From assembly GCA_039621445.1 (NCBI GenBank), contig CP154954.1, positions 17,452,589-17,516,588 of the forward strand: DNA of 64,000 nucleotides, in the 5' to 3' direction. The position numbers and the translations under genes were made by a program. Shown in pieces: positions 14,571 to 56,305 of this stretch (within the stretch, counting starts at the first letter, position 1; the number at the start of each line of letters is the position of its first letter). The notes below the pieces were generated by a model. The model was not told where the DNA came from and searched no databases. It saw only the letters and a program-made list of their open reading frames with translations. Source of the DNA: Euglena gracilis (taxonomy: Eukaryota).

Positions 14571-14643
14571 GCGGTCGGGGACGAGGGTTGGCAGGGTCGT
14601 CACCCCTGACGATGCCCCACCTGCCAGCCTGGGGCGAAACCGC
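14571..14643 (+). ncRNA. Type III hammerhead ribozyme (unit 3)
   Basis: Same sequence as 13250-13322. Confidence 0.9.
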
Positions 14644-15230: not shown

Positions 15231-15303
15231 GCGGTCGGGGACGAGGGTTGGCAGGGTCGTCACCCCTGACGATGCCCCACCTGCCAGCCTGGGGCGAAAC
15301 CGC
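15231..15303 (+). ncRNA. Type III hammerhead ribozyme (unit 4)
   Basis: Same sequence as 13250-13322. Confidence 0.9.
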
Positions 15304-15881: not shown

Positions 15882-15954
15882 GCGGTCGGGGACGAGGGTT
15901 GGCAGGGTCGTCACCCCTGACGATGCCCCACCTGCCAGCCTGGGGCGAAACCGC
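15882..15954 (+). ncRNA. Type III hammerhead ribozyme (unit 5)
   Basis: Same sequence as 13250-13322. Confidence 0.9.
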
Positions 15955-16070
15955 AACACAGACTGACAACACACGCGCCCACACCGACTGACAACACACT
16001 TCCCCACAAGCACACACTCTCGGGTCGGCAAGGAGTTCCCCCCAAGGAGTTCCCCCAGCAACACCGATTC

Positions 16071-16534
16071 AGAAGAGAGAGAGAGAGAGAGGGGGGAGGA
16101 GAGAGGAGAGAGAGGCGAGAGAGAGAGAAGATGAGAGGAGGGGGGGAGCCGGGAGAAGAAAAGAGAGATGGAGAGGGAGAGGGAGAGAGAGAGGGGAGGG
16201 AGGGGGGGAGGCGCGGTCGAGGGGGAGAGGGTGAAGAGAAGGGGGGGGGGGGGAGGGGGGGGGGGGGGGTGGGGGAAGGGGGGGGGGTGGCGACGGGGGG
16301 GGGGGGGGGGGCTGAGGGTGGGGGAAAGGGGGGGAAGAGAGGGGGGGGAACGCGGAGGGGCAGGGGCGGGGCAGAGAGGGGGGGCGGGGGGGGGAGGGGC
16401 TGTGGAGCGGGACGGGGGGGGGGTGGAGAGAGGGAGGTGGCGTGGAGGGGGTGGGGTGGAGGGAGAGAAGAGGGGAGGGGGGGTGGTGGGGAGGAAGGGA
16501 GGGGGGAGAAAGGGCGGTGGATGGAGCGGGAGAG

Positions 16535-16565
<31 letters not shown>

Positions 16566-16640
16566 CAGGGAGAGAGGAGAGAGAGAGAGAGAGAGAGAGA
16601 GGCGAGAGGGAGGGCGAGCGGGGAGGTGGGAGAGAGAGGG
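16071..16640 (+). repeat. Polypurine (GA/G-rich) tract
   Basis: Almost pyrimidine-free on the + strand; (GA)n and poly-G runs. Confidence 0.9.
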
Positions 16641-16859
16641 GGGTGAAGAAGCAGAGCAGGCGACAACGCTGCGATCGCAGCAGAAGAGGGGCGAAGGCGG
16701 AGAGAGGCCGAGAAGATGGTACGGAGAGAGAGGTGTACAAGCTCCACCCAGAGCCGGAGAGGGGCAAGAGAGAGCGGAGGTGGGCAGAGCCAGCAGAGGC
16801 ACAAACCCATGCAGAGAGCCGAGAGAAGAGGGGGAGAGACTGGGGACGCAGGTGCGACC

Positions 16860-19700
16860 GAACGCCACGCTGGTGGAGGGGCACGTCCTCTCCACAGACC
16901 CCGACGAGCTGGCGTCCCCGTACCTGAGGGAGATCCTCAGCAAGGGGAAGAAGTACCGCCTGCGGCTGCCCATCTCGTCAGTGCTGGCGCGCCTCGACGA
17001 CGGCCTCCGCCAGTACGTGGAGTACAAGACCAAGGCCCACCAAGACGACGAGGGCTACCGCACGGGCCTGCTGAAGTGGGCGGAAGCGGTGCGGGCACGC
17101 GCAGAGGCCCGCATCACGCAGGCGGCGAGGGAGCACCCCCACGAGCCAGACGGGTACCCCAACCTGCAGGAGCAGCTCAGCGCAGCCAAGAGGGCGCTGG
17201 TGTTCGGGCCGGAGGACAGGGCACCGCACGCCCTGTTCTTCGCCTGCGGGCGGCTGTTCGCGGCGAAGCTGCACGAGCGGCTAGAAGCGACCGGGGCATT
17301 CGTCCCAGACGCCCGCCCGCCGGCGGACCTGCTGGAGCAGATCAAGGCCCTGAACGACGAGCTGCAGCTCCTCCACCACCCACGGCTGCCATACCTCTAT
17401 GGAGCATGGAAGGCCAAGAAGCAAGCCTTCCGCTGGATTGCCGGGACGGCCCGGAACCAGGACGAAGGCGACCATGAGGAAGAAGAAGGAAAGCCAAAGA
17501 ACGCCCTCTCCGAAGTGGGCGGCCTCATGGTCAAAGTGCTCCAAGTGGTGATGGCAACCCTGCGGCGAAAGGACCGGGAAGCAGTGGGCAAAGGCAACAA
17601 GTCCCGCTACTGGATCATCGAGGACATCGATGAGTTCGTGCAGGAGTTCCGGGTGCTGGCGCAAAGCCGAGCGCTGAGCGCCGTGCCGTGGGCAACGTAT
17701 GACTTCACCACCATGTACGAGGCGCTGGAGCACGAGCACCTGGTGCACGGGGTGATGGCAGCGGTGAAGGAGGCCTGGGAGGAGGAAACCATCGGCAAAG
17801 CACGGGACACGGGCCAACATCCACGAGACGTGGACCTACGCCTGGGGGCAGGGGGCTGGCACGAGGCGGCCAAGGTGAAGGACGCCCCCGGAATGCCGTG
17901 GTTCACGCTGCCGAGGGTGGAGGACACCCTGCGCAAGATGCTGGCCAACCTGTACGCGGTGAACGGCGGGGTGGTGCGGAAGCAGCAAAAGGGAGTACCC
18001 ATGGGGCTGGAGTGCTCCCCGCAGCTGGCCAACCTGTACGCCTACGCCGTGGAGAGCAGGTGGGTGGACCGAACGGCACCGACCAACGTCCTGATGCGGC
18101 GGTACATCGACGACATCATCGTCATGGGACCAGATGCCCTCACCCCCGGGAAAGGGCTGCCCACCGAGGAGGACTACGGGATGCAGTACAAGTCCACCGC
18201 CGAGGAGCCCCACAGCCTCATCTACCTGGGGGTGCGGCTGTTCGTGGACGACCGCGGACAAGCCCACTCGGTCCTGCACGACCGTGCAGTGGACTACCCC
18301 ATCCGGGTGGACCGATACCCCGAGGGCACAACAGTGGCCAACCCAGCCCAGCTGGCAGGCGTCATCATGGGCCGGTTGGTGGCAGCCCAACGGACATGCA
18401 GCCGCATGGATCTGTTCCAAGACGCGGTGGCCGGCATCTTCACCCACGCGCATCGCAGGGGATACCCACGGAGAATGGTGCACTCCACGTGGACCCGGTT
18501 CCTGTGGCGGTACTGGGACGCGGCATCCGTCACCACGCGGGAACTGCGGGCGTGGTTCCACGACGCGTGGCGAAAGGTGACGGAAGCGGAGGAGGGGGGA
18601 CAGCGCAAGCCGGCCCCCAAGTGGCCAACGTGGGAAGCCCGCGTACCACTGCCGCGGGACAGTGGCAGGGGAACACCACAGCACCCACCACCGCGGGACG
18701 CAGCAGGGCACCAGGCAGCATGTGAGGGGACCCCCCAGCCCCAAGCAGCACAACGGGAGCCCATCGACGACCTCATCGACCTCACCACGCCACCGGGGTC
18801 CCCGCCACACGCAAGCCCAGGCGACGGGGAGCCGCAGGGCGGCTCCTCGCAACCAGCCAGCAGCTACCGCCCGATGGCACCGCCGCTGATACCGTACCCC
18901 CTCCCACCGAGCGGCAGGGGAGGGGTGGGGCCAACCAGGACCGGACGACCAGGACAGAGGGGGGCAGGGCAGAAAGGCAACATACCGCCGAGAAGGCCGT
19001 GGTCTTCACCGGTGTACCCCACGCGGGGGGCTGCCAGCTCGTCGTCGACTTGGGCCGAAAAGGCTGTGCGATGGGGCTGTCCGCCTTCCGAGTCGCTGCC
19101 ACTGCACGCCCCTCTCGCACAGGAGCGTGCAGTGGGGGGCGCACTCTCCCCACGAGCACAGCCACCTCACGTCCCTGTCGCCGAAACACGGTGCACAGCG
19201 AGCACACAGGAGCGGGAGGTGGCCGGCGCTTCCCCCACACCCACCACACAGACATCAGCGGCGACGCCAACCAGCCAGCAGCCACCAACAACCACAGTGC
19301 AGCAGCCGCTGCAAGTGGTCCAGGTGCCCCAACCGTACCCGGTGCCGGTGCCGGTGCCCACCCCCTGTCCCGTGCCGGTGTACGTCGAGCGCGTGGTGCC
19401 GGTACAGATCCCAGTGCCATACCACGTACCCGTGCCGGTGGTCGTGGAGCGCGCAGTGCCCACACCGTACCCGGTGCCGGTGCACGTGGAGCGCCTGGTG
19501 CCAGTGGAACGCCCACTCCCGCTGCCGTGGCTGGACACCGGGGCAGTGACCGCGCTGCTCCGGGGGGCGAGCGCACAGCTGCCCATGCCAGTCCAACGCC
19601 TGATCCAAGCGGTCAGCAGCACCACCGGGCCGACGAGGGCCCGGTGGCAGCGGGAGATGGGGCGACCACAGCCTTACCCGGCGGAAGGAGCAGTGGACCC
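16860..19700 (+). CDS. PLE family 2 reverse transcriptase and PVPV repeat region
   Basis: Inside ORF 16168..20736: EGHV..KGKKYRL, EDRAPHA, WKAKKQAFRWIAGT, DFTTMY, YIDD, QLAGVIMGRL, RRGYPRRMV all align with family 1. The coding frame appears to switch near 19630-19790. Confidence 0.8.
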
Positions 19701-19779
19701 CCAACGGGCACTGCTCGTCGAAATGGTGCGATGGATCTGGCAGCAGCAACAGCAGCAGCAAGAGAGCCGCCCCTCACCC

Positions 19780-22029
19780 ATCGCGCCACGCTGGCGATCG
19801 AAGACGCACCCACCGCAGCCACACCCACATCGCCCGCGGCAGGCACCACCCCGGCAGGAGCAGCACCACCACCAAGCAACAACCCACCACCACCCGCAAC
19901 GGAAGGGGCCAGCACCACCGCCACGCCAGCAGCACCAGGCAGCACCAGCCCCGCGCCCGCAGCAGCAGCAGCAAGCAGCACGCCGGCCCCACCAACACCA
20001 ACCACAAGCGCCACACCGCCACCGAGCGCCACCCCCACGCAGGAAGCACAAAGCACCACAGCCACCGAGGAGGCACCGGCAAGAAGCGACCCCATGGCCA
20101 CAGACCGACTCCTGGGCAACAAGCGCCCAGTGTCGGTGGTGGTGGAGGAGGCGGCCACACCACAGCCCACCGAAGGGGACGATGCCTCGCAGGCAACCCA
20201 ACCAAGCCAACGCAAGAAGAGGCTGTACACACGCTTGGCCGAGTGGCCGGCAGAGTGGCGGGAGCAGTACGAGCGGTTCAAGGCCACGCCCAAAGCAAGC
20301 GACCGCCACGAGATGTGGCAGGGGTGGGACCAAAGCCTCCAAGACCAAGTGTGGGCAGCCGTCGCCGACAAGCGGAGGGACGAGATCCGCCGATGGAAGG
20401 CGAGGGAGAACGAAGGCCCACCAACCCAAGCAGAAGGCCAAGCCAGAAGCACGCGAGAAGAGAGGCGGAGGTCCCACACCGGAGCGGCAGACGAAGGTGG
20501 AGAACCCACCAGCCACGACTGGCAAGAAGGCCAGCGCATCGGGGAGGCGAAGCAGCCAGGCCCAGAAGAGGAAGGGTCGGCAGCGGACCCCCCCGAGGGG
20601 CAAGCGGGGAGCCCAAAGAATCACCCGCGACCGGCCTGGGGCGGCTCTCCAGGGGTACCTGCCGATCACCGGCAGGGCGTGTCCCGGCACGCCGTCAATC
20701 GGGACCCCAACAAAACAGAACCCACCAGCACCATGAACACAAAAATCACAGGCATGCCAGGCAATGACGGCCTGCCCGGCGCAGAGGACCTCTGCCCCGG
20801 GTGGCAGGCGGGGCGCCAGCCTAAGAACCCGCAACCGATCTGGGGCGGATCTCCAGGGGTACCTGCCAATCACTGGCAGGGCGTGGCCCGACACGCCGTC
20901 AAGTGGGACGAAGGAGCAGAAGAACCGTGCCCCAGAAGCAGAAGCCAAGACCAGCACGACTGGAAGAAAGGGGCACGGATCGGGGAAGCAAAGAACCCCG
21001 GACCACCCCAAAGAGGGTACCAACAGCCCAACCCAAAAGGGGGGGCCCAGCGAGGAGGACAACAAACAGGAAAAGGACAGACACAGCCCAGGAAAGGAGG
21101 CAAGGGTGGCAAAGGAAACGTCACCCCACAAGGAAGCCGGCAGGGCCAACCCCAAGGAGAGGGCTGGCAAACAGCACAAAGCACCGGCCGAAAACGCCTC
21201 CAAAAGCGCCTCCAAGGGCTCCAACGGGCGCTGCAAGAAATGCAGCAAGAGCTCGACCAATGGCGGCAGAATCCGCCCCCGCAGCAGCAGCAGCAACGAC
21301 CGGACCTAAGGGACGACAACCCCTGGGCCCCCCTGCAGCCACAGCAACAACGCCGGGAGCGGAAGAGATCCATTGGGTTTGAACCCCCAAGCCGCCAAGC
21401 GAGCAGGCAGCCGCCAGAGCAACGAGGAGGACGCGGAGGACGGGGAGGACGAGGTCGTGGACGAGGCGACGGAGCCCAAGATCGACACGGCCATGGAGAT
21501 CCCCGAAACCCGCGTGCCGGGCACGGAACTTGCCAGCCGTGCCCGTCATGCGGGTACCAGAACGAGGTGTACCACGCCGACGGGGCCCTGGGGGGTGGGG
21601 GGCTCGCCGGCGGTGGCATCCCCGGGCCCCCGGGCCCTGGCGCGGGGTCCGGGGGTGGCGTGAAAGGCGTGCGGAGCCCATGGGGGGAGCGCCGCCCCCC
21701 CAGCACGCACGCACGCACGGGGACCGCCACACACCCACCAGCAGGCAAGGGAGGGGGAGGGGGAAGGGGCAGCCCAGCGCGCCAGACAGACGGGCATCCG
21801 GAGGACCGGCGGCCAAGGGAGGGGGGAGGGGGAAAGGGATGGGCAGCCCAGAGCGCCAGACAGACGGGCAGCCACCGGGGGACAGGAGGCCAAGGGAGGG
21901 GGGAGGGGGAAAGGGAAAGGCAGCCCACGTGGAGAGAGAGAGGGGGAGGGGAGAGAGGAGGACAGACAGAGGGGAGAGGGGGGAGAGGGAGGAGAGAGGG
22001 AGAGAGGGAGGAGAGAGGAGAGGAGAGGT

Positions 22030-22030
<1 letters not shown>
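19780..22030 (+). CDS. PLE family 2 post-RT extension with two 2A-like motifs and a coiled coil
   Basis: Frame of ORF 18999..22190: LAIEDAP, KKRLYTRLAEWPAEWREQYE, HDWQEGQRIGEAKQPGP, HDWKKGARIGEAKNPGP, LQKRLQGLQRALQEMQQEL, NPWAPLQ, GIPGPP; open into the (GA)n run. Confidence 0.7.
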
Positions 22031-22184
<154 letters not shown>

Positions 22185-22363
22185 CGCTGACCCCGGCACC
22201 TGAGAAGAGCAAGGGGAAGAGAAGGCTCAAGACGGGCCCAAGCAAGACGACCAAGAAGGGAGTGGGGAAAAGGCCGGTGAGGGTCCCCATGAGGAGCCCA
22301 ACCCCCCGTGCCGGGGCGACTCCCTGTCGACAACTTCTTCCGCGGAGTACGATGCAAGAGAAT

Positions 22364-22420
<57 letters not shown>

Positions 22421-22669
22421 TGACCACCTTCACGCCAAGGAGTGGGGCGAGTGGCCCCCGGGGTCCCCGCTCCTGGCAACCGGAGTTCCTGGGCCGTTCC
22501 TCGGGTGACGGCAGCACCCGAGGGCCATGCAACACGCGGAGCCGCTCTCCAGGTGGGTGCCCACGGGGCTTTATCTCGCCTGCCTGGATGGAGCCGTGGG
22601 TGGCCCTGAGGGTCCGCATACCCTTGGGTCCCATGACTCGCCCACCCGCGGAACATGAGCGCCCCGTCA

Positions 22670-22745
22670 CCAGGCGGTCTGCCCCCACCAGCCGGGCGTC
22701 GGGGGCATCGACAAGGAAGGCCCGGCTGGATCCGAAACCGCCTGG
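22670..22745 (+). ncRNA. Type III hammerhead-like ribozyme with variant core (TCGACAA)
   Basis: Stem III CCAGGCGGT/ACCGCCTGG, GTC site, stem I TGCCCCC/GGGGGCA, core TCGACAA (22708-22714), stem II GGA/TCC, GAAA; perfect 10-bp loop-loop complement CCAGCCGGGC/GCCCGGCTGG. Confidence 0.75.
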
Positions 22746-22764
22746 CTCTTTTACCGCTGTGTGC

Positions 22765-22829
<65 letters not shown>

Positions 22830-22841
<12 letters not shown>

Positions 22842-25800
22842 CAAGGGCCGGCCCCCCTCCGATCCCCTCTCATCCCAACCCATGGGATCCCCTTCAAGGC
22901 CATCGTCGCGGCGGACGGCGTCGGCAACGGCGGCAGAAGGAGACCATGACCAGCACGGACGCCGAGGCGGCGACATCGCAGGTGTGCCACCCCCGGCCTG
23001 CCGGAGCTGGTATCTCCGGCCCTCCAGTTCGGGCCGCACCGGCTGGAGGTGGGCGTGCAACCCGTGCGAGGCCTCCCCCCTCTGCGGCACCCCCCCACCT
23101 CCCTCCCCATCCCCTCCCATCCCCACCCCCACCCACACCCAGAATCCCCCGTCCATACCAATCAAGAAGAGAGATTTCCGCAGTCCCTGCGGCTCGGGGA
23201 GCTTTCCCCGGGGTCCACCGTGAATTGCCTGGCGAGGTTTCTCGCACCCCCAGGCCTCCCCCCGAGCGCCCTCCCGGGCAACCCTCTTCCCGAAGGCCCC
23301 CCAGGCCGTCCCACTCCCGTGATGACCGTGCCCTCCCCATCGCCGAGCCCTACGACAAGCACGACCCCCAGCCGTCCCGCCACCGCCGCAACGAGGGGCA
23401 GTGGAGCTGGCAGGACCACCTGCAGTGGATGCAACGCAGCTGGGGGCGGCGATCTTGGCGCAACAAGACCATGCGCAGGGTCCTGCAGCTCCGCTCCAGC
23501 GACTCAGCCAACGCCGCCGTGGACTGGGGCGACGTGGCCGCCCTGTGGGATGCCCCCGGCTGGATTTACGCCCTCTTCCACTTCCCCACGGGGCGACTGT
23601 ACGTCGGGCAGACCACCCGGAAGGTTTACAAGCGGGCCAAGGAGCACTGGTGGAGCCGGGGGCGCTGCGCCGACGCCCTGCACGACGCCCTGGCCAACGA
23701 CCCCACCCCCTTCTCCTTCCTCATGATCCCCATCGAGAGGCTCCCCTCACCCGACAGCTTCCCCCGGGCTGACCGCCGCGCCCTCGCCCGCCGGGATGCC
23801 CTCGCCCGCGAGCGCAAGTGGGTGGGCCTCCTCAACTCCATGTGGCCCCATGGCTTCAACGCCGCCTACCCCGGCTTCCCCGTCAGCCGGAAGGTGCTCC
23901 GCCGCCAGCACACCCTCCCCAGCCCCGATCCCGCCCCCACATCCCAAGGCGACCCCCCGCCCAGCCCCGACCTAACCAAGTGGCTCCGTCGCTGCCACCA
24001 AGGGGACTCCAGCGCCCTGGCGGAGGCACGCTCCTGGGGCAAGGCGCGGCTGTGTTCCACCCTGGACTGGCTGCAGCAGCACGTCCCGGACGACGAGCGG
24101 CGCTCCGGCCACCTCTCGCTGGAGTGCAAGCTGGTGGAGCTGATCAAGGCGAAGAGGAAGGAGGCCCCCGAGCGGCAGTTCCTGAAGTTCTCCTACTCCA
24201 ACAACGGCGCCCGCCACCTGGAGCTGCGCAAGGTGTTGCGGGAAGAGGCCGTCTACAAGCTCCACCCCAACCCGGACGTCGCCGCAGCCATCATGGTCTG
24301 CGACAAGTTCGCCCCGCAATGGCAGGCGTGGCTCTGCAATTACGCCCAGGTCTCCAGCGAGCTGGACGTGGCCGCCGCACAGACCGACGACCTCGAGGGC
24401 TGCCAGTGCCACACAGCCCTCCGCCGGAAGGAGCCGGCAGCCTTCCACGAGGGCCACGTGGTGAGCAACGAGTCAGAGCTGCTGCGGTGGACGTACTTGC
24501 AGACCCTCGCGGCCAAGGGGAAGAAGTTCCGGCTGGAGGGCCCCCCTGACACCGTTCTCCATGACCTCCGCCGGGCGCTGAACCAGTACACCGAGTGGGC
24601 AGCGCGCAGCAACCCCACCGACGCCACCTACCTCCGGAAGCTGGGCGAGTGGGCCGATGCCGTGGAGGCCCGCTGCACCACCAACTGGCGGTGCTCGGCC
24701 ATCAGAGAAGAGCTGGTCCCCACCGGCTTCCCGGGCCTGTCACAGCAAATGCGGGAGGCTCACCAGGTCCTCGTCTTCCTCCACGACGACCGGGCCCCCC
24801 ACGGCTTGATGTTCGTTTGCAAGCGCTGGTACCAGAAGCAGATGGCCACCTACCTGGCGGACTCCACCGTGTTCGAGGACGTGACCGACACCTGGAGGGA
24901 GGTGGTTGCCCGGCTGTCGGAGGTCAACCAGCGGTTGCACTTCCCCACTGGCGCCGGTGTCGTCTACAACTACGGCATCTGGAAGCCAGCGAAGAAGAAG
25001 TTCCGGTTCATTGCCGGGACCCGCAAGAACCCCGACCCCGACCCCGGATCCCCCGCCCCCGCCTCGGAGTCCGCCCCCGCCTCCGCCCCCACCGCCTCCA
25101 AGGAGCCACCCCGGCAGCCCCTCTATGCCCTGAGCAAGGCTTTGGTGTCGCTCCTGAAGCACATCGAGGTCGCCCTCCGGGAAAAGGACGAGCGGCGGCA
25201 ACAGCAGGAGGGCATCAAGGCGTTCTGGGGAATCGACAGTGTGGAGTCTTTCGTCCGGATGGTCCGAACCCACTCCAAGGACATCCTGGCGGGGGGCTTG
25301 GAGACGGCGGACTTCACGACGATGTACACGGCCTTCACCTTCGACGCCATCATCGAGCGGACCATGGAGTCGGCCAAGGAGGCCTGGGCCTTCGTGCGGG
25401 AGACCAAGACCCCCGCTGGGGTGGACCCTGCCACCCCACCGTCCCTCACCACCGGCGGCTGGTCGTGGGATGGCCTCGGCTACTCCTTGGATGACCTGAA
25501 GGAGCTGGTGGGCGGTGCAGAACAACTACAGCTGCAATGGCGGAAGGGTCCGGCGCTAGATCCGGGGCATGCCCATGGGCCTCCCCCGGCCCCGCAGCTG
25601 GCCAATCTGGCCTGCTACCCCGTGGAGCGCGACCACATGTACGCCCTCCCTCCCCAGCTCCGGTCCTCCGCCGTGTCCCGATACATCGACGACATCGTCC
25701 ACCCCACCACCATGCCCCTCCCCTCGGCAGCCGAGTACGGCATGGAGTACAAGACCACCGGCTCCGGCGAGTCCGTGGTGTGCCTGGGCGTCCGGGTGTA

Positions 25801-26265
25801 CATCCAATGCCATTCCAACGGGGACCGCGTGGTGCACACCACCGTCCACGACCGGGAGGAGGAGTACCCCCACCACATTGTCCGCTACCCCCTAGCCACC
25901 ACCACCGCCCCCACCGAGCAGCTGGGCGGGGTCATCATGGGCCGCCTGGAGTTCGCCCGGATGGCCTGCAGCCACATGGGGGATTTCAAGCAGTCAGTGG
26001 CCAACATCTTCCGCAACGCCATCTGGCGGGGGTACTCCCGTCGGCTGGTGCAGTCGGTGTGGAGCCGCTTCCTCTTCCAGCGCTGGCATGCCACCGACAT
26101 CCGCGTCCGTGAGCTCCGCACCTGGTTTTCCAAGGTGTGGAAGTGGCTCCACTCCAGCCCCCACCGCGCTCCCCCAGCCCCATGGGCCACAGCCCTCCCC
26201 CTCGATGAGGCCCATGCCCCCTCCCAGGCCGACTTTCTCTCCGTCTTCGGCCACCCCGCACCCCC
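22830..26265 (+). CDS. PLE polyprotein: N-terminal GIY-YIG endonuclease, Cys/His linker, RT (locally frameshifted)
   Basis: GWIYALFHFPTGRLYVGQT...RAKEH...ERKWVGLLNSMWPHGFN (23558-23860) matches the GIY-YIG pattern including R, H, E, N residues; CQCH...HEGH linker; DFTTMY; YIDD. The GMPMG motif is out of frame through compensating indels. EN-before-RT order is that of Naiad/Chlamys-type PLEs. Confidence 0.85.
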
Positions 26266-27787
26266 CCCTCCCCGGGGGCATCGACGACTTGCTGGCCGAG
26301 ATGACGCCGCCCCCTTCCCCCTCCGCCTCCCAGCCCTCCGACGTGGATGTGATGATCATCGACCGGGAGGCCCACGTGCGCCACGGCAAGCAGCAGGCCC
26401 CGAGAGGAGCGTCCCGATCCGTCCACTGGCCAGGGCTCAGAGAGGGGGACGCCCCAGAGGTGAGGTGCGCCCAATTCGTGAGCAGCAAGGGCAAGGACCC
26501 GGGGGTGATGCCGCCAAGGATCCCGCCCCCGGCGAGCCCGGGCGAGCCTCTACCGATCAGTCAAGAGGAGGGGGACGCCCCAAACAGCCGCAGCACCAGG
26601 CCGGCCCACACCGGGGCGGGGTTTACGCCGGGCAGTGAACCGGGGGTGACGCCGCCAAGGATCCCGCCCCCGGGGAGCCCGGGCGGGCCTGAGGACAGCG
26701 AGGGGGACGCCCCGAGCCACGGACTGGCCCACACCGTGACGGGGTTTACGTCGGGCTGTGAACTGGGGGTGACGCCGCCAAGGATCTCAGCCCCAGGGAG
26801 CCCGGGCGGGTCCGTGATCGTGCTGCCAGGGCCGGCCTCAGAGCCGAGGGGGGACGCCCCAAGCGACAGGCTGGCCCACACCGGAGCGGGGTTTACGCTG
26901 GGCGGTGAACCGGGGGTGACGCCGCCAAGGATCTCGCCCCCGGGGAGCCCGGGCGGGCCTGAGAGTTGCCAGCCCACGGCCATGGAGACAGAGACGGACG
27001 CCCTCGAGGGGGTTGCAGCGCAGCCAAGCACCGCCTCCCAATCCCCCAGCGCCCCAACGGCCCCCACAGCCTCCCAAGGCCCCCCTCTCTCCAACCCGGA
27101 CTCCGCCTCCCCAACCCCATGCCTCCCCCCACCCACCCGTGAGGTCCTCCAGGAGCGGGTTGTCATCATCGAGAGGCAGGTCCCCGTTCCCGTGCGGGAG
27201 CCTGTCTTCGTGGATCGGGTCATCGAGCGGGTCGTCCCGGTCCCGGTGCAAGTCCCCGTGGAGGTCCGGGTCCCCATGCCCGTCCCCGTCCCCGTGGAGG
27301 TCCGGGTACCCATCCCCATCTACCTCCCTCCCTCCGCACCACAAGCCCCCTCCATCGTGCAGAATGTGCATCTCAACGCACTCACCATCGGCCCCTCCTC
27401 CTCCTCGTCTTCCTTGGCCCTCCTCCAAGGTCTCCCCATTCCCGCCATCGAGGCCCCCAACCGCCTCCTCCTCACCGCTCCCCCGCCACCACCCAGCGAC
27501 ACCACCGACGACGACACCTCTTCCCAAGGCCCCACGAAGAAGAGGAAGTTCACTTCGTTGAGTGAGTGGCCTGCCGAGTGGCGAGCCAAGTACGAAGAGT
27601 GGAAGGCGGTGCTGAAGGACCCACGAGAAGTAGGACGAGGACAAGCCATGTACGAATCATGGGACCCGGACCTGCAGAACCAGGTCTGGGCCTCGTGCGG
27701 CCCCCAGCGGCGGAGCATCATCCAAGAATGGCAAGAAGCCGCAGCAGCCCAGAACGTCGAGCGCCCCGCGGACCTCGAGCGCCAGAC

Positions 27788-28307
27788 CAGGGAATTTCTT
27801 AAGGACCCCCCGGGGGGGGGGGGGGGTCCAGCCTCCGGCTGGCAAAAAGGCTGCTGGCTGGATTTGAGCTGCTGGCTGGACCCCCCCCCCCGGGGGGGTG
27901 GGGGGGGGGGGGGGGGGGGGGGGGTCCGGGGCTGGAGCGGGCTGGGCTGGGCTGGGTCGAGGAAAAACAAAATTTTCTAACACATTTTGGCCATTTTCGA
28001 CATTTTGATGGGTGGAGCTAGATCAAGGCTGGGGGGCTGTGATGGAGGGGCTGTGATGAGGGGGAAAAATGCAGGGATAAGTGAGCTGGACAGCCCGGTT
28101 GGCTGGCCGGCCTGCGGCCGGCTGGGCCGGCCTTCGGCCGGCTGGCCCGGCCTCCGGCCGGGCTGGACCCGACTTTATTTCACTCGACCCCCCGGGGGGG
28201 GGGGGCTCCCAGCCCAAATTTGGGCTGCTGGCTGGATTTGAGCTGCTGGCTGGCTGGACCCCCCCCCCCCGGGGGGTAGGGTACCCTCCGGCTTAAGAAA
28301 TTCCCTG
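27788..28307. mobile_element. hAT-like MITE inserted in PLE copy B
   Basis: Perfect 16-bp TIR CAGGGAATTTCTTAAG; 8-bp TSD CGCCAGAC (27780-27787, 28308-28315); copy A has the empty site. Confidence 0.93.
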
Positions 28308-48344: not shown

Positions 48345-49694
48345 TAGATGATGCTTTTTCTTGAGAAACACCTGTCAAACATACAATCCAGAAGAAAAAA
48401 AAAACACCTCGAAACTGAAATAATAAAAAAAAACTGCAAAAAAAACTGCAAAAAAATGCAAAAAAACTGCAAAAAAACCCCAAAAACATGAAAACTGCAA
48501 AAAAAAACTGCAAAAACTGCACGGCGAATATTTCCCAACCTCCTGCCCTTGGGTGTTGCCACCCCACATTGGTGTGGGGTGTGGGTGTAAATCCGATGCT
48601 CGCTACTTCAAACATGTGGAGGTCATGGCAAACTTGGAGATCAGGCAGTAATTTTTGGGGTCCTGGACCCCCCCCCCTAGGTGAAGTTCACCGTTTGAAA
48701 GTTCATCGGGGGGTCCCGGACCCCCTCCCCCCCCATCTGCCTACCCCAACGGTGAACTTCACCATGAAGTTCACCACAGGAGCACTTTCTTGGCCAAAAA
48801 CGGCCAAAAATGTCATTTTGGGCAATTCTTTCATTTCATCGTTCATGGAATTTCGATAAATTCCATGAACCATCAACCTCAAAATGACCATTTTAAGAGG
48901 AAAGGAATCAAAATTCCACCCATCAAAATTTCACCCCCAACCATCAAAACGGTGAAATTCACCGGTGAACTTCATCAGTGAACTTCACCGCCAAACTACC
49001 CCTCCCCCTCCCTCCCAGTGAACGTTCACCGGTGAAGTTCACTGGGGTTTCCGCACCACCCCCGTACTGCCAAAATGTGGCTGTGTTGTCCTGGTGGGTG
49101 GCCAATGTTGTTATATATATATATATATACGGTAGTGGGGCGAACCGAGTCCACCGACCAGTGGCACAGCCTACTGGATTTGAGTGTTCAGGGGAGAGGG
49201 AAGCTATGTACAGATGGGGCGACCCCATGGATAGTCAGAAGTGGTTAAGCAGAGGCAGAGGCCGCGGGGCTTTAGTGGTCGGGGTACGAGGGTGACCGGG
49301 AGGCTGGGTGTGGGGAGTGATGCCGTTGCCCTGGTTTGTGGACGATGCGGTGGTGAGCATGCTCCGGCTGGCTGATGGCAGTACAGGCAGCTTGTAATCC
49401 TGTGCTTTACCGCAACATCATTTCGGAACGGCCTTGGTGCTCTGGATGCAGGGCTTGAGTCACGAGGTCCACCAACACGTGTCAAACTCAAATGGTGCGA
49501 CGAGAAACCGTGCCGGACAGGTGGACGAAGCTATGTGGGAAGGAGGCGGGCCGTAGGAACAGCGAAGCAGCGCCGTTGAAGTCAGCCGATGCCTTGTGTC
49601 CAGTGAGGCTTGGCCATGAACTCAGAAACGATATTGCCGCCGGAGCGGCAGCTAGTTTTCTGCAGCAGGTGCGTTTTCTGCACCGAGGGCGTTT

Positions 49695-52600
49695 CTAGAG
49701 TGAGTACGGGTGGTGTGCGCTGCTTCCCCCATCAGTCACTTCCTCCGCGCATTGACCCCAGGCCAGCTGCTTCGCTAGCTCCCTGGCCAGGGCCATGCTG
49801 AGGCCCTGCCAGCAGTTTGCCTCAGCAGCCCTCCTTTCCCATGAGTCGTGCTGTCCCACCAGCAAACGTACACACTGCCCAACGAAGCTGAGAGCTGAAT
49901 CTCCCATGCCTCCGTAGCAATCAAGAACGAAGGGAATGAACGTCCATCCCCTCCGTTTGCAACCATCGCCATATTTCTTGATTTTATCGGCCTCCTGTGA
50001 CTCGTGCCATTTCCCAAGGTCTTCCGTCCCAGGTCGCACACGGGATGGGGCAAGGGGGTGGCGGACAGTCACATCGATGGCTGCTGGGCCATTGGCGTCA
50101 TATCGCATCACAAACACGTCTCCTGGACGAGAACCATCCGGGGCACTTTCTTCTCTTCTGGCCGGGAATCCCGCTCTTCGGGCCAGGCCCAAGAGATAAG
50201 ACTGCACCGCCCCGTGTCGCCTCACAATGTTATTTCGGTGGCAACAGACGAGGTGGTGGCCTCTTACATCAAGGGGGTTGTGGCATCGCGGGCAGCCAGG
50301 CAGTCCATCACCGGGAGTAACCACAGGTGCGCCAACGGACCACTGGATCAGGGCCTGGAATTCCCTGGTTGGGATGAGGGTTTTCATCGCAGCACAGGGC
50401 ATCACGGATGCCCACGCCATAGCGTGGGGCTTCATTTGGCAAGTTAGCTTCAGTTTATCCACTCCTGAGAGGGAGTCGTGCAATGATTTTTGGCGCGCCA
50501 TTGCGCACTGCTGGCCGCAGAATTTTTGGGGGATCACGTCGTGAGGAAGTGTCTCATGCCTTCGGGGATCTTCCAGGAATGTCTTGACAGCCGGTGGGAG
50601 GTCACATGATGCGCTGATGTCCCCAACTAGCTTTGTGAAATCCGTTGGCAAGGGGGTCGCTCCGTTGAGTGGTGGCAAGTCCAGGATGCGTTCACCGCGA
50701 ACCAGGAAATCCAGTGTGGCAGCCCACCTTGCGCTGGTACGTTCGGTGCTTGGATCTCGGATACCCAATCCACCAAGGCGGACAGGAAGTGTGACCTGGC
50801 TCCACTGATCTTCCTCTAGAGGCCGTCCGACGATGACACTCATCGTGTTTCGTAAGGTTTTGCTGAGCAACGTGCACTGGGCGGTCGCCACGGTGATTGG
50901 TGTGGTCCTCAAGAGATCGTTCACTTTGCAAGCATCCAAGCACATTCGGAGAATTGTGAACTGGATGTGTGCAGAAGGTACCTTTTGTAGAAGAGAACAC
51001 GCTTTCAGAGCTGCCTCGCACCGTCCAAACCACACTCGATCTGCAAAGGTGTGATCTTCTGGGTGACAGACTGGCACTCCCAACGACTTGAGGCCTGACC
51101 CTGGTACGTAGGGAGTGACAGGGATACGCTGCAGCACACTTGTCCCGGGCGGGAGAGATGCCCAGTCTGGGTGGAAGGCGGGGCCCCACAGTGTGCACTT
51201 CTCGGCATTCAAGGCAACACCAATGAGGGGTCCTTTCTCCAACACGAGGTGTACTACCGCTTCAAGTTGGCGCAGGTTCCCCACGACGTGGGCATCATCC
51301 AAATACCATGCTTGCCATCCGCACACTGCATGTATTTCCTCCACAAGGCTTTGGATTGCAAGAGAGAAGGTAGCTGGTCCACACGGGTCCCCTTGTTGAA
51401 CTCCCGTTTCGCTTCGAAGGCACGCATCACCAAGGAACAAGCTGGAGTGCTCAGCGTAGCAGGTCTCCAACCATGTCACCATTTCGGGACATCGTTCTCG
51501 CGATGCCTCCAAGAGGGCTTCTCGTCGGATGCAATTGAACGCATTGGAGAAGTCGAGTTGCAGAATTCCCCAATCTCGGGACCCTCCTTGGTGCAGTGTT
51601 GTGACAACGTGTTGAAGGCCCATCCCGATGAGCCCACATGCGTCCGGACAGCCCACACCGAACTGTCCTGGCAGCCCTTCCAGCGTGAATTTCCGGACAG
51701 CGGGTTGGCGCATCAGGACTTTGCCCACGAGTCGCCTTAGACACTCGCCCGAGGCGATGGGGCGGGTGCCTTCTTGGGCGGGATCCAGTGAGGTGGGGAT
51801 GAGATTTCCCGCGTTGTCCACGGTAGTCGACGGCTTCACCTTGCGCAGGGCCGTGAGGCGTGCGGATGTGAGAATCTCGGCCGCACCGGCAGGCCATCCC
51901 TCGTTGATGCACCTGTACACGAAGGTCGTGAGTCCCTCCGGGAGTGTCTCTGCCTGGCCTCCTGCCTCTTTGCTCAGCATGTCTTTCAGGTGATCCGGCT
52001 TTAGCCCAGATGGGCCCGCCGCGGACTCCTTTCCGAAGCTAAAGACGGCCTTGCGCACCAAAGACAGCCGGTCCCTCCTTTCGTCCTCATCGGAAGGCGG
52101 CGGCACACCTTTCCGCTTGTCCGGTGGCCCTCGGCCAGGTGGCTCTTCGGAAGGGTGGAGATCCTTCAAGCGTTGGCGAACAATGGGGTCTTTGTTGTCC
52201 TGCACTCCATCAGACAGCAGGAATTGGCACGCTTTGCCAACTGCACCCTTGCTCACCAGGTGTTCAAGTCGGCGAACAATCCCCTCCTGCACTTCCTCCT
52301 CACGGCGAGCCTGGCCCCGCGTGCGGATCGTTTGGCTCAACTGTGGCAAACGGATGGAGTCCTTCCAACTCTCCGCCACCGCCCGCCTCAAAAATGCCTC
52401 CGCCCTGCCGCGAATGACCCGGCCCAAGCGGGCCGAATGCCCTCGGCCGCCCTTTCCTAGAGGGGCCAGCAAAGCCTTCGGGAATGCCCAAAGCGCGTGC
52501 AGAGTTTCCCACGTGGGCTTGTCATTGAACGCGCGCAGGATCGTGGAATACGCATCCGAGACCGCTGGGAGGGCCCCCTTCGGGATGTTCGAAACCGTCC

Positions 52601-53345
52601 CACGGGAGTCCAAAGAAATTTCGGTCCAGGACGGGTACAAATCCGGGCAAGGAGAAGTCAAGGGGGCGCCAGATTTCATGCCGGGGATAAAATCCATCCC
52701 CATGTCCTGGTCGTCCTGCAGCGCGCTTGGGCCGCGGGTCGTGGTTCTTGAATCAATGGAGGGGAGAGCGGCCTCTGGCGGTGGTCGGCTGAGAAGGGCC
52801 TGAAGAAGTTGTTGAAGGTCCCGGGCGTCCTGCGTCGTGGTCTCTTCCACTGGGCCTAAGGCGGAAGGAGGCACGTGTGTTGTGGCCAGTAAGAACCCCA
52901 CCGCTCTTGTGGGGTCCGTAGTCAGGTCGATATCCATGGATCCCGTCGGCGGATCCGCCGGGGGGGTGGGTCCCGGGTTTGCTTCCACGTCGCCCGATGT
53001 CAGGATGTCGTCACCTCTGCCCGACCGGCAGTGGTAGCTTACGGCCAAGGAATTCCTTAGTGCCGGGAAGAGACATGGCTTTTTTGCTCCAGGAACATGG
53101 CATGAGGCACTGTGGACTGTCTGGCATGTTTTTTGCGTCTGGTCAGGGTGTGCGGCAGAAGCAGGTGAGCGGTTGTGTGTCCGGGGGCTTGTTTCGTGGC
53201 TATGCTGTCTGCTGGGTGGCTGAATCTCACCTTGCTGACCATTGGGGGCCGTTGGCTCGATGCCTGCCAAAGCTGATGCACAAGGTTGTTGGCAGGGATT
53301 GGATCTTTCAGGGCCAGCTGCAATGTCTGCCAAATCCCTGTCCAA
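49695..53345 (-). CDS. RT plus zinc knuckle plus restriction-like endonuclease, with N-proximal 2A peptide
   Basis: RPIASGECLRRLVGK, QFGVG, LDFSNAFN, GVQQGDP, YLDD, GGLG, CPRC...HLVCC, RH, RPGD...IDVTV...EADKIKKY, PFVLDCYG; GDVEANPGP at 52968-52994. Confidence 0.93.
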   Translation of the reverse strand: MDRDLADIAAGPERSNPCQQPCASALAGIEPTAPNGQQGEIQPPSRQHSHETSPRTHNRSPASAAHPDQTQKTCQTVHSASCHVPGAKKPCLFPALRNSLAVSYHCRSGRGDDILTSGDVEANPGPTPPADPPTGSMDIDLTTDPTRAVGFLLATTHVPPSALGPVEETTTQDARDLQQLLQALLSRPPPEAALPSIDSRTTTRGPSALQDDQDMGMDFIPGMKSGAPLTSPCPDLYPSWTEISLDSRGTVSNIPKGALPAVSDAYSTILRAFNDKPTWETLHALWAFPKALLAPLGKGGRGHSARLGRVIRGRAEAFLRRAVAESWKDSIRLPQLSQTIRTRGQARREEEVQEGIVRRLEHLVSKGAVGKACQFLLSDGVQDNKDPIVRQRLKDLHPSEEPPGRGPPDKRKGVPPPSDEDERRDRLSLVRKAVFSFGKESAAGPSGLKPDHLKDMLSKEAGGQAETLPEGLTTFVYRCINEGWPAGAAEILTSARLTALRKVKPSTTVDNAGNLIPTSLDPAQEGTRPIASGECLRRLVGKVLMRQPAVRKFTLEGLPGQFGVGCPDACGLIGMGLQHVVTTLHQGGSRDWGILQLDFSNAFNCIRREALLEASRERCPEMVTWLETCYAEHSSLFLGDACLRSETGVQQGDPCGPATFSLAIQSLVEEIHAVCGWQAWYLDDAHVVGNLRQLEAVVHLVLEKGPLIGVALNAEKCTLWGPAFHPDWASLPPGTSVLQRIPVTPYVPGSGLKSLGVPVCHPEDHTFADRVWFGRCEAALKACSLLQKVPSAHIQFTILRMCLDACKVNDLLRTTPITVATAQCTLLSKTLRNTMSVIVGRPLEEDQWSQVTLPVRLGGLGIRDPSTERTSARWAATLDFLVRGERILDLPPLNGATPLPTDFTKLVGDISASCDLPPAVKTFLEDPRRHETLPHDVIPQKFCGQQCAMARQKSLHDSLSGVDKLKLTCQMKPHAMAWASVMPCAAMKTLIPTREFQALIQWSVGAPVVTPGDGLPGCPRCHNPLDVRGHHLVCCHRNNIVRRHGAVQSYLLGLARRAGFPARREESAPDGSRPGDVFVMRYDANGPAAIDVTVRHPLAPSRVRPGTEDLGKWHESQEADKIKKYGDGCKRRGWTFIPFVLDCYGGMGDSALSFVGQCVRLLVGQHDSWERRAAEANCWQGLSMALARELAKQLAWGQCAEEVTDGGSSAHHPYSL

Positions 53346-54482
53346 TGCTGACGGCTGGGTGGAAGAGCCTCACCCCGTTGTTGAATGGGGGCTTTTGGTC
53401 CAATGTCTGTCAAATGCTGCAGGCTGTGCGTTTTCTCCTGCACCATTGGCATTTGGCAGAGGCAAAAAACACGGGCCAAACCCACTTTGAAGACCACAGT
53501 GCGCGATGAGGAGATGCGGAGCAGGAAGGCAGACAGCTTGAGTTGGAAAGTTTTGACATCGAGTCCCGCAGGATTATAGCATTGACACTGCAGGCCGAAT
53601 GTCTCACTCACTCACCTTCTGCTGGGTTGATCCTCCGGGGCTGAAGTTCTGGGTTGACCCCTCGGGGGTTGCCCCCCCCGTTGGCAGTAAGGGGGTGGAA
53701 TGCTGAGCAGGTACTCCAGGGTTGAGCTCCCGGGCTGTTGCTGAGGGGCTGATTCCCTGGGCGGGCACGACGGGGCTGAATTCCTGGCCCAACTCTCCAG
53801 GGCAGACTGGGGAAGATTCTTCTGGGGGGGAACTGGGTGCACAGGATGTCCCAGGGCCAGGTAAGATGTAATGTCTGGGGTCTGTGGTGCTGGGTGGCTG
53901 AGTCTCACCCTGCTGTAAATTCAAGGCTGACAAATCCTGCTGGCTGTTTGAAGCCTGCTGCATGTTTTTCCCTTCCACCATGTGAATTTGAATTTGGGAA
54001 ATGCAAAACACATGGGCCAAGACAACATTGATGATCAGAATGTTCAGCATGATTGGGCAAGTTGTGGTTGTAGTGGCTGTGCCTGCTGCAGCTGCAGTGG
54101 GAGCCATTATGGGCTCGACCTCTGCTGCATTTTGCTTCAGTTCCTTGGGCTCCATGGTGAACAATTCTCCTGGGGCTGGATCCTCCAGGGCTTGGATCGC
54201 AGATGTTGATGTACTGATGCTGGGTGGCTGAATCTCACCCTGCTTCTCCTGGGGCTAGATCTCCCAGGGCTTGAGTCGATGTGCTGCTGCTGGGTGGCTG
54301 AACCTCACCCTGCAATCAGTGGACCTTGCTCTCCACCAAGAAGGCTGACTCCAGATTAGATGAAAAGCAGAAACTGCAGCGATCAAATCAATTTGACAAT
54401 TGTTGATTGTAAACTTCGTCTCCTTGGGGAAGTGAACTTTTACGGGCCACCCGCCCGCTTGCCAGACATGTTCATGTGGAGG

Positions 54483-54508
54483 CGAAAAAAAATAGACACT
54501 CAGAAAGT
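54483..54508 (-). other. Euglenid spliced-leader exon sequence
   Basis: Minus strand reads ACTTTCTGAGTGTCTATTTTTTTTCG, which I recognise as the 26-nt Euglena-type spliced leader; not followed by a GT donor. Confidence 0.88.
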
Positions 54509-54540
54509 AGTTGTTCAAGTCAAAGACCCAGCGGGGTGCC

Positions 54541-55766
54541 CGGTGGTGGGGCGAACCGAATCCACCGACCAGTGGCACAGCCTACTGGATTTGAGTGTTC
54601 AGGGGGAGAGGGAGGATATGTACAGATGGGGGAACACCATGGATGGTCAGAGGGGATATACAGAGGCAGGGGTGGCTTTAGTGACCGAGGTTACGGGCGT
54701 TGAGGTGATGTTGTGTAGGTTCGGGGTCGTGAGGGCACGGATGATGCAGGGCCTGGCCCTAGTGGGAGCCGTTTCTTCTATTCGGTCGATCCGGCTCCTG
54801 CGTGCCCTGTGCATCGTGCCATGTGCACCCTGCTGACCTTTGGGGCCCGGTGGCCCAATGCTTGCCAGAGCTGAAACAAATTGCTGCTGACTGGGATTTG
54901 ATCTTCCAGGGCCAGCTGCAACGATGTGGTTCACCAATGTGAAATGCTGCAAGGTGAGTGACTGGATCTCACCCTGCTGCAGATTGGGGGCTGTTGGTTC
55001 AATGCCTGTCAAATACTGCTGGCTGTTTGCTTCCTCCATTTGCATTTGGCAAAGGCAAAAGGCATTGGCCAAAAAGACTTGGAAGATCACAATGTGCAGC
55101 ATGTGTGGGGTGCTAGTTCCAGCTGCAGAGGGAAGATGCCCTGGGAAATGTGCCCTGGGGGGGATGTCACTGGGGAGGGGGTTGAACCCCAATTTGACAG
55201 ACCCAGTGACTCAAACGCTTTCATTTCCCTGGGGACATGCAACAACAACAACAGCAAGACAAAGATGGGCCTGGAGAGGCCAAGGCAGTTGCATCTTATA
55301 AAATGTCTTGCTGCCACAGTGGTCAATGATGATCGACATGGCACCATTACATCTTGGCTGCTGGGGCTGCCTGTGGCTATACTCCTGCTGCTAGGGCGGC
55401 CTGAGGCTCTGCCCTTGCTGCTGGAGTCGCCGGAGGCTTCGCACCCGCTGCTTGATGTCTGGAAGCTGCAGCTGCTGAGCATGCTGCTGCTGGTGCCATC
55501 GATGTGGACCCCAGATGTCCAGGAGGTGACCATGCTGCTGCTGGCGCTGCTGCTGGCGCAAAAAATATGGGCCGTACTCTCCACGAAGAAGGCTGACTCC
55601 AGACTTGAACACTTGAACAGCAGGAACTGCAGTGACCAATGCAACCAATTGTGACAATGATTGAAATTCTGTCTCCTTGAGGGTCTGCTGCAAACTTTCA
55701 CGGGCCACTCGCCCGCTTGTCGGACATGTTCATGTGGAGACGAAAAAAAATAGACACTCAGAAAGT
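54541..55766 (-). mobile_element. Non-autonomous internal-deletion relative of the CRE-like element
   Basis: 54541-54660 matches the 3' end 49130-49250; 55620-55775 matches the 5' end 54365-54520; no RT or RLE. Confidence 0.8.
55741..55766 (-). other. Euglenid spliced-leader exon sequence (second copy)
   Basis: Identical 26-mer ACTTTCTGAGTGTCTATTTTTTTTCG on the minus strand. Confidence 0.88.
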
Positions 55767-56109
55767 TGTTCAAGTAGAGTTAAGAATTTGTCAGTTGACA
55801 TCATCTTAAGAAACTGAATCTCAACCGTTGTGAACAAACGGTCTTGTATACACATCCTTTTCCAATCTACATCCAGGTCTCAAAAAAGGGTGGGAAATCA
55901 TCATCTTTTGAGATTTTAATACTTTTATATTTTTGGTGAAGATTCTCCACTGCTAAAAATGTAAAAAGCGCGCGTGATCCAGAAGAACAGTCAAAAAGTT
56001 TTTTAACAAACATCAGCCATTTTTTCTGTGTTTCTGGTCATGGGTGGTGCAATTGTGAGTGAGTGAGCGACCGAGCGAGCGAGTGTGTGAATGTGATTGT
56101 GAGCGCCTT

Positions 56110-56128
56110 GGATGAGTGTGTGTAGAAC

Positions 56129-56194
<66 letters not shown>

Positions 56195-56305
56195 TGTGTG
56201 TGTTGTGTTGTGTTGTGTTGTGTTCTGTTCTGTTGGGTTGTATTGTGTTGTGGTGTTGTGTGTTGTGGGTGGGTGGGTGGGTGGGTGGGTGGGCGTGGGC
56301 GTGGG
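56110..56305. repeat. Compound microsatellite (TC, AC, TG, TGTGT, GGGT)
   Basis: Stacked simple repeats read directly. Confidence 0.9.

Follow-up and report, generated by a model that had tools for sequence, protein, structure and literature searches.

We examined a 64,000-nucleotide stretch of the Euglena gracilis genome (hereafter, the window; NCBI GenBank assembly GCA_039621445.1, contig CP154954.1, positions 17,452,589 to 17,516,588 of the forward strand) in which two related elements lie next to each other, each headed by a complete copy of the host's 26-nt spliced leader (SL). The long element (5,379 bp; 54508 to 49130) encodes a reverse transcriptase (RT), and the short element (1,226 bp including its leader; 55766 to 54541) lies directly upstream of it. 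Coordinates of both elements, their leaders, and their junctions were read on the minus strand of the window. An earlier note on this DNA, made from its letters alone, had described a CRE-like element and its short derivative and had given the span 54483 to 55780. This span takes in the short copy and the leader of the long copy, but the long copy itself extends to 49130, outside the span.

Both leaders are complete. Exact matches to the 24-nt core of the leader were found at 54506 to 54483 and at 55764 to 55741, whereas 100 dinucleotide shuffles contained none (n = 2 versus 0). With the two bases that precede the core, both matches extend to the full 26-mer, ACTTTCTGAGTGTCTATTTTTTTTCG. This 26-mer does not differ from the host leader: it matches, letter for letter, the leader printed for E. 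gracilis in PMC6242988, and the same leader is described as common to other euglenophytes (PMC3621762). Judged by its leader, the host would be a euglenophyte, most likely Euglena. The previous claim that the leader heads both elements (26 of 26 positions exact, twice, and never in the shuffles) therefore stands. No further 26-mer within five substitutions of the leader was detected on either strand of the 64-kb window, and no cut-down relict leader with five or fewer mismatches was detected in the window behind a full leader. Downstream of the leader's final G, the sequence continues with CCTCCACATG in the long copy and TCTCCACATG in the short copy, such that the dinucleotides directly behind the exon are CC and TC, respectively. 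SL RNAs, in contrast, have GT directly behind the exon (PMC10679874). As had been proposed, the leader is thus followed by element sequence and not by a GT donor in either copy.

Conservation between the two copies is strongest at this end. The leaders are identical at 26 of 26 positions, the next 48 nt at 43 of 48 (5 changes), and the following ~130 nt are ~75 to 80% alike; conservation in the 5′ region is thus highest over the first 74 nt. In both copies, an upstream open reading frame (ORF) of 12 codons (stop included) begins 8 nt past the leader (54440 to 54475, with the ATG at 54475, and 55698 to 55733; minus strand), with the peptides MNMSGKRAGGP and MNMSDKRASGP.

The short element is 81% identical to the long element over the 5′ 208 nt, 74% over a middle stretch of 279 nt, and 89% over the 3′ 133 nt. 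No long ORF matching a Pfam family was found in it, and a protein search with the frame that runs through its head (P0003) considered 707 candidates, none of which scored. Judged by these sequence comparisons, the short element is a non-autonomous relative of the long element and not a fresh deletion of it. The stretch from 56120 to 56290, 350 nt upstream of the short element, consists of long compound microsatellites with the units (CT)n, (CA)n, (GT)n, (GTTGT)n, and (GGGT)n.

Coding capacity and class of the long element

Self-comparison of the window detected no terminal direct repeats (long terminal repeats [LTRs]) around the long element, which contains two ORFs (Table 1). All family contigs at 53606 are 4 nt shorter there than the window copy, whose extra bases sit in a GTGA run. 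Without these 4 nt, ORF1 (region 53060 to 54155, minus strand) comprises 367 codons and overlaps the start of ORF2; ORF1 of the window copy is therefore cut short. A unit of ~30 nt (GGTGAGATTCAGCCACCCAGC-like) is repeated at 54313, 54243, 53914, and 53236.

In frame and upstream of the RT, ORF2 contains a 2A-like D(V/I)ExNPGP motif, as in 2A-bearing retrotransposons, at which ribosomes may skip. Its closest relatives, P0004, P0005, and P0013, carry three, three, and two such motifs, respectively, between N-terminal modules. According to precomputed annotation, P0005 and P0019 also carry the Dam-type adenine methyltransferase family PF05869. The 2A-like motif upstream of the RT and the host phylum, Euglenozoa, recall the L1Tc and ingi elements. 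These and other 2A-bearing non-LTR elements carry an endonuclease of the apurinic/apyrimidinic (AP) type. The Euglena element differs from L1Tc and ingi in its restriction-like endonuclease and in having relatives with up to three 2A motifs. RVT_1 was the sole Pfam family detected at E ≤ 0.1, with no AP endonuclease among the matches.

The YLDD motif of the RT was invariant in seven of seven aligned relatives, as were C1018, C1021, H1031, C1035, P1074, D1076, D1091, and K1121 of the C-terminal CCHC zinc knuckle and PD..D..K endonuclease; the key residues of the latter region were also conserved in 14 of 14 sequences of a second alignment. When compared with the PDB, the family profile matched the RT of R2 proteins with E = 3.2e-14, and a weak match to these proteins (domain E = 0.07) covered the CCHC-nuclease stretch. 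A structure model of the last 238 residues (predicted local distance difference test [pLDDT], 82.9; predicted template-modeling score [pTM], 0.80) found R2 proteins as all seven of its best PDB matches (E = 3.6e-6 to 2.6e-3; template-modeling [TM] score, 0.45 to 0.60). Later matches comprised entries containing spliceosomal Prp8 and then, from rank 13, Holliday-junction resolvases (E ~ 0.2). Because the RT and the C-terminal CCHC/PD..D..K region match R2 proteins, we assign the long element to the non-LTR retrotransposons with a restriction-like endonuclease (R2/CRE/NeSL/R4/HERO grade). The CRE, NeSL, R2, R4, and HERO clades are described as carrying this endonuclease type (PMC4640811). The designation CRE-like is accordingly apt for a non-LTR element with a C-terminal CCHC motif and restriction-like endonuclease but not for the site habit of CRE, which these copies do not share (see below).

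Likeness to R2 extends over the RT profile, the CCHC and endonuclease fold (9dou, 9nl3, 9nl2, 8gh6, 8ibw-z), and the lack of a poly(A) tail. R2, however, targets 28S ribosomal DNA (rDNA) and is freed from its co-transcript by a ribozyme, whereas neither rDNA nor a match to a ribozyme family (Rfam) was found with the Euglena element, and identity in the endonuclease part was 13 to 17%.

The best protein homologues shared 42 to 48% identity with the element among the 120 matches listed, none of which had a trypanosomatid name. Pfam detected no protease family in P0001 or P0002, and thus no counterpart of the protease of the NeSL clade; among the same 120 matches, distant homologues carried USP (7 of 120) or OTU (3 of 120) protease domains. 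The only matches in a protein cluster atlas were to RVT_1 clusters. When metagenomes were scanned with the protein alignment, relatives made up 515 of 600 stretches, and the 80 that were retained showed 23 to 30% identity. None of these 80 contained the leader; the relatives at 42 to 48% identity are not among them. Distant relatives of 3.3 kb, with 28 to 30% identity to P0001, were observed on the long metagenome contigs L003, L004, L005, L011, L046, and L053. Copies of this family are 97 to 99% alike, their flanks differ, and they have no poly(A). Because of the differing flanks, the 3.3-kb family appears to be dispersed and not site-specific, which shows only that distant relatives can disperse. 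Neither the leader nor a relative of the element was found in viral contigs. Elsewhere in the window, a GC-rich block (8374 to 27980; 63 to 70% GC) contains long ORFs with no leader nearby, including weak RVT_1 matches at 11135 to 12946 (minus strand; E = 2.4e-4, below the cut-off) and 16168 to 20736 (plus strand; E = 1e-7). No kinship to P0001 was found for the other RT ORFs of the window.

Table 1. Features of the two leader-headed elements and their flanks (window coordinates)
Feature	Coordinates	Strand	Evidence
26-nt spliced leader, complete, head of the short element	55741..55766	-	exact match, shuffle control
26-nt spliced leader, complete, head of the long element	54483..54508	-	exact match, shuffle control
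ACTTGAACA abutting the leader of the short copy, read as the left 9-bp target-site duplication	55767..55775	-	
Short element body	54541..55740	-	self-comparison with the long element
20-nt putative tail, unique, behind the shared 3′ end of the short element and ahead of the right-hand 9-mer	54521..54540	-	family contigs diverge at 54541
ACTTGAACA + ACT ahead of the leader of the long copy, read as the right duplication of the short element	54509..54520	-	
Post-leader block of the long copy, 43/48 identical to the short copy, holds the upstream ORF	54435..54482	-	copy alignment
ORF1 remnant (P0002), no Pfam family	53604..54155	-	ORF list, Pfam
ORF2 (P0001), 1216 codons open, no ATG ahead of the 2A-like motif	49695..53345	-	ORF translation
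2A-like motif GDVEANPGP, residues 118-126 of P0001	52968..52994	-	translation
Reverse transcriptase domain, residues 588-720, YLDD at 681-684	51186..51584	-	RVT_1 E 2.3e-12
CCHC zinc knuckle and PD..D..K restriction-like endonuclease, residues 1018-1121	49983..50294	-	alignment, predicted structure
3′ module common to both elements	49130..49260 (short copy 54541-54670)	-	self-comparison
(TA)9 run, read as the tail of the long element	49112..49129	-	sequence, folding control

Junctions of the two copies and the wider family

The two elements are separated by a spacer of 32 nt (54540 to 54509) that contains no intron-like stretch, in agreement with the previous claim that no SL intron lies between them. 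The 9-mer ACTTGAACA, which had been said to precede both leaders, is indeed present before each: it abuts the leader of the short copy and recurs near the long copy at 54520 to 54512, but there it is followed by ACT and only then by the leader (a 3-nt offset). Placed in this way, the two 9-mers look like a target-site duplication that flanks the short element. The unique 20-nt stretch and the (TA)9 run would be the tails of the short and long elements, respectively; the 3′ flank of the long copy reads G(TA)9A (49130 to 49111), as reported earlier. For the long copy, a candidate duplication is AACAAC (left, 54515 to 54510; right, 49112 to 49107, overlapping the last A of the tail). On this reading, the original site was ...CTCTACTTGAACAAC/ATTGG... 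and took up two insertions no more than 5 bp apart, the short element apparently having landed 3 nt upstream of the head of the long element, or the two having arrived in the reverse order, 5 bp apart. Comparison of the flanks within the window found no uninterrupted copy of the insertion site. The 9-mer occurs five times in the window against 0.46 expected, with all occurrences between 52261 and 55775; two of the five lie on the plus strand, in tandem, inside the short element (55603 to 55619). Plain duplication accounts neither for this excess nor for the double hit within 5 bp, and the two together offer a hint of a target preference. In read-through RNA, the flank would be predicted to pair with the internal inverted copies of the 9-mer, but no special fold was detected for the heads with their upstream flanks (z = −0.78 for the short copy and +0.15 for the long copy).

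The 5′ junctions are base-exact in both copies, the leader's last G being followed by YCTCCACATG, whereas the 3′ junctions differ (a unique 20-nt tail in the short copy versus (TA)9 in the long copy). Exact 5′ junctions and variable 3′ junctions fit a fixed RNA 5′ end and are the reverse of the outcome of a site-specific nick.

The wider family was investigated in the assembled runs X1 and X6 (organism A), X17 (organism B), and X24 (RNA) at a likeness of 90; the DNA labels of the runs are guesses. No RNA run was among the runs listed as containing the element, and X24 was included on the basis of its species label. The read-run analysis covered 24 of ~900 loose-end rows and 15 of 46 joints, and only the two window copies were read end to end. 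Contigs of the three DNA-labeled runs covered all 30 bins of the stretch, and at least 18 runs, under two organism labels, contained 36 to 49% of its words. Summed word depths, which are not copy numbers, were 10^3 to 10^4 over the body and rose in the last part of the 3′ module to 2.3 to 5.5 × 10^5 (X1 and X6) and 2 to 5 × 10^4 (X17). These depths point to a multi-copy family whose 3′ end is common to something far more abundant. The last ~55 to 100 nt of the element (54541 to 54600 and 49130 to 49190) were ~20 to 100 times commoner in DNA-run contigs than the body, and the depths suggest that a very abundant short family has the same 3′ end. At 54541, 73, 84, and 50 contigs leave the window sequence, and the letters that follow agree at only 0.36 to 0.37. 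From this divergence, the shared 3′ end was placed at 54541/49130, with variable sequence behind it.

Joints between contigs revealed further arrangements. At least 2 of the 15 place an interior position of the long copy (51137 and 52434) beside the end of the 3′ module (54541/54543), as 5′-truncated copies would. One contig each in X6 and X17 sets the 3′ module ahead of the leader (joint 54508>54541); in these, the 32-nt spacer of the window is absent or replaced. A contig of X6 has 8 other letters between the 3′ module and the leader. X1 and X6 each contain one contig (word depths of 690 and 1676, respectively) in which 16 letters stand in for a 950-bp piece comprising most of ORF1 (53339 to 54288).

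Leader-bearing stretches outside the window do not share its upstream sequence. In X24, 6 of 47 RNA reads extend 37 nt upstream of the leader and have only the leader and 8 nt in common with the window; these head reads are read-through and not transcript starts, and the X24 read analysis listed no place at which molecule starts pile up. The exact leader also occurs at 791 to 816 of L081, a 988-bp contig filed under a bacterial metagenome-assembled genome, with unrelated upstream letters and an unrelated body; past the leader it reads ATCTTCTCAG, then a consensus-like GTAAC, and then an open frame. L081 is probably mis-binned euglenid DNA and represents another leader written into DNA. It was the sole leader match among genome contigs, the rest of its assembly had no likeness to the leader or the element, and no Rfam family was detected in it. 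All three of these other leader-bearing stretches (L081, the X24 reads, and the X6 contig) differ upstream of the leader. The earlier note had held that the shared 9-mer speaks against fresh trans-splicing in each cycle. We find this argument weak, because the 9-mer flanks the short copy in the manner of a duplication and because the three other leader stretches differ upstream.

Possible sources of the written-in leader

Among the sources put forward in the earlier note, retroposition of a leader-bearing RNA is best supported, given the junctions, the variable upstream letters, and the lack of an SL-gene context. We hold it about evenly probable that the leader in each copy is the 5′ end of a retrotransposed, leader-bearing RNA. 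Several observations favor this reading: the 5′ junctions are exact whereas the 3′ junctions differ, the leader is more strongly conserved than the adjoining 48 nt, the letters upstream of it vary, the 9-mer lies on both sides of the short element, no SL-gene context was detected, the family is multi-copy, and the element encodes an RT with an R2-type endonuclease. More than 70% of Euglena mRNAs are reported to be trans-spliced (PMC10679874). Trans-splicing would put the host leader onto the element RNA and thereby provide a scattered element that lacks its own promoter with both a cap and a fixed 5′ terminus. In target-primed reverse transcription, the element's own RT would then copy this template, which presumably bore the leader at its 5′ end, to the very end. 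Because the RT would copy the leader-bearing RNA to its end, the leader would be written into the DNA of every full-length daughter.

Several points weigh against retroposition of this kind. The written-in leader ends in CG, not AG, at the junction, such that a canonical acceptor cannot re-splice the same point and the source of new leader RNA is unexplained. The share of family copies headed by the leader rests on the two fully read copies. Endonucleases of this grade are usually site-specific (PMC4640811), and random targeting would not be expected to place two insertions only 5 bp apart. Plain duplication does not account for the excess of the 9-mer, including the two opposite-strand copies. 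Finally, the AACAAC candidate is only 6 bp long, shows a 1-nt offset, and could have arisen by chance. Three routes to a leader in the next cycle are conceivable: (a) a few source copies may retain an outron and an AG, (b) a CG-to-AG change behind the leader's U8 tract may turn a daughter into a source, or (c) the written-in leader itself may be used.

Alternatively, although this is unlikely, a single capture may have made the leader part of the element's own 5′ end. It would then be inherited from parent DNA without trans-splicing in each cycle and kept by selection, for example as part of an internal promoter that starts transcription at the leader's first base or as a ready 5′ untranslated region for translation. 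The leader joins YCTCCACA in the same way in both window copies and in a further variant represented by 6 RNA reads, and the CG end bars re-splicing to an AG acceptor at that point. Likewise, the intact 26 of 26 positions beside 5 changes in 48 nt, within the best conserved 74 nt of the 5′ region, are consistent with purifying selection. On sequence grounds, however, the contrast between leader and adjoining block would fit renewal and selection equally well. The only head RNA reads (6 of 47) extend upstream of the leader, with no pile-up of starts, and thus speak against an inherited, working leader. SL RNA carries a special cap that trans-splicing passes on, whereas a DNA-encoded leader alone brings no such cap. 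Inheritance also overlaps with retroposition of a leader-bearing RNA, from which it differs only in the source of the leader in each cycle.

We give a lower probability to a working leader combined with an endonuclease guided by the 9-mer, in which a selected leader would re-cap read-through RNA and the element would stack head to tail at leader heads. A daughter may become a new source because its U8 tract is one change (CG to AG) away from a consensus acceptor at the old junction, and new copies would stack head to tail because the endonuclease would prefer ACTTGAACA just before leader heads.

CRE1, SLACS, CZAR, and NeSL-1 insert in SL RNA genes; the CRE site lies inside the SL exon, so that the leader is target DNA. 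By analogy, the Euglena copies could have inserted at the exon-intron border of an SL RNA gene, with co-transcription from the SL promoter and with GTATAT behind the long copy as the start of the intron. We consider this improbable. The endonuclease type is associated with target-specific insertion (PMC4640811), and both element bodies begin directly behind the last base of the exon. In addition, GT opens the 3′ flank of the long copy, an Sm-like ATTTTGG lies 55 nt beyond it, and one contig each in X6 and X17 sets the 3′ module just before the leader. In contrast, the surroundings are not those of an SL RNA gene. E. gracilis SL RNA and 5S genes are tandemly repeated (according to a title cited in PMC10679874), but Rfam gave no match at gathering score, including 5S, in the whole 64-kb window and none at E ≤ 1 around the heads, and the window contains only two leaders. 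The one Rfam match in the 3′ flank was a chance-level hit to a bacterial small RNA (E = 0.31; 17 bits, where the gathering score is 100). Behind the short copy, the unique 20-nt stretch is not intron-like. When the leader was joined to the 3′ flank of the long copy, the fold was no better than those of shuffles (z = −0.52 to −0.72), with the Sm-like motif partly paired, a weak test in which no host intron was compared. Upstream letters differ among the window, L081, and the RNA reads, and the 3′ junctions vary even though a specific first nick should fix them. Divergence past the 3′ end in the family contigs (73, 84, and 50 contigs) points the same way, although many of these may be abundant short relatives. 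Unlike in the CRE clade, where insertion is inside the SL exon, the leader here is whole. We therefore found no support for insertion of these copies in an SL RNA gene at this site, and the corresponding proposal of the earlier note is not borne out, given the complete leader, the lack of a detected SL and 5S context, and a 3′ flank that lends no support to an intron.

The tandem could also have formed in one step if the RT, having copied the long RNA through its leader, switched to the 3′ end of a second template, a short-element RNA; in that case, too, the leaders would be RNA 5′ ends. The R2 reverse transcriptase is capable of such end-to-end template jumping, the order of 3′ module and then leader recurs in the family (the 54508>54541 joint in X6 and X17 and the X6 contig with 8 other letters), and two joints likewise set a 5′-truncated long copy behind a 3′ module. 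A single step, however, leaves unexplained why the spacer contains a 9-mer matching the one before the short copy, and the joints give the order of their two sides but do not establish direct abutment. We judge this scenario quite doubtful. A mixture of complementary DNA (cDNA) or transcripts into the assembly, with the leader absent from the DNA, is highly improbable despite the guessed run type ("DNA?"), since the heads are embedded in continuous flanks with a second element directly upstream, at least 18 runs hold 36 to 49% of the words, the contigs of three runs span the full set of 30 bins, those with the heads among them, and in L081, an unrelated contig of a different project, the leader likewise lies inside DNA.

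Relation to known systems and implications

Neither the leader as a mark of retroposition nor the association of endonuclease-bearing elements with leader genes is new. In dinoflagellate retrogenes with relict spliced leaders, a leader that heads a genomic unit is taken as the mark of a trans-spliced RNA that was reverse transcribed and integrated, as in the mRNA recycling model (PMC3942190; see also PMC5585692 and PMC6050394), and the Euglena elements share this feature. The dinoflagellate units, however, are host genes, reverse transcribed in trans, with cut-down relict leaders behind a fresh one, whereas in Euglena the unit is a retrotransposon with its non-autonomous relative, headed by a whole leader with no relict behind it. 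CRE1, SLACS, CZAR, and NeSL-1 resemble the Euglena element as non-LTR elements with an RT and a C-terminal restriction-like endonuclease, joined to a leader in a trans-splicing host (PMC4640811). The Euglena element differs from them in its complete leader, the absence of an SL-gene context, and the absence of a detectable Ulp1-like protease. What is new is a multi-copy retrotransposon, together with a short relative, that has the whole leader as its first 26 nt outside any leader gene. A literature search, which did not extend to subscription journals and supplements, found no description of such a Euglena element, and the passages found in a preprint that describes Euglena retrotransposons carrying adenine methyltransferases make no mention of a leader-headed element.

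These findings have practical and biological implications. In Euglena assemblies, the leader alone is unfit for locating SL RNA genes or transcript starts, and in cDNA libraries primed with the leader, priming may also occur on read-through RNA from these copies. The written-in leader as a marker of retroposition would extend from dinoflagellates to euglenids, and the apparently autonomous element would supply an RT for recycling RNA into DNA in a very repeat-rich genome. Expression of a scattered element of the R2/CRE grade may rest on host trans-splicing, a question that is now testable. If the written-in leader does prove to be a working part of the element, trans-splicing would be built into the life cycle of the retrotransposon, not merely mark it.

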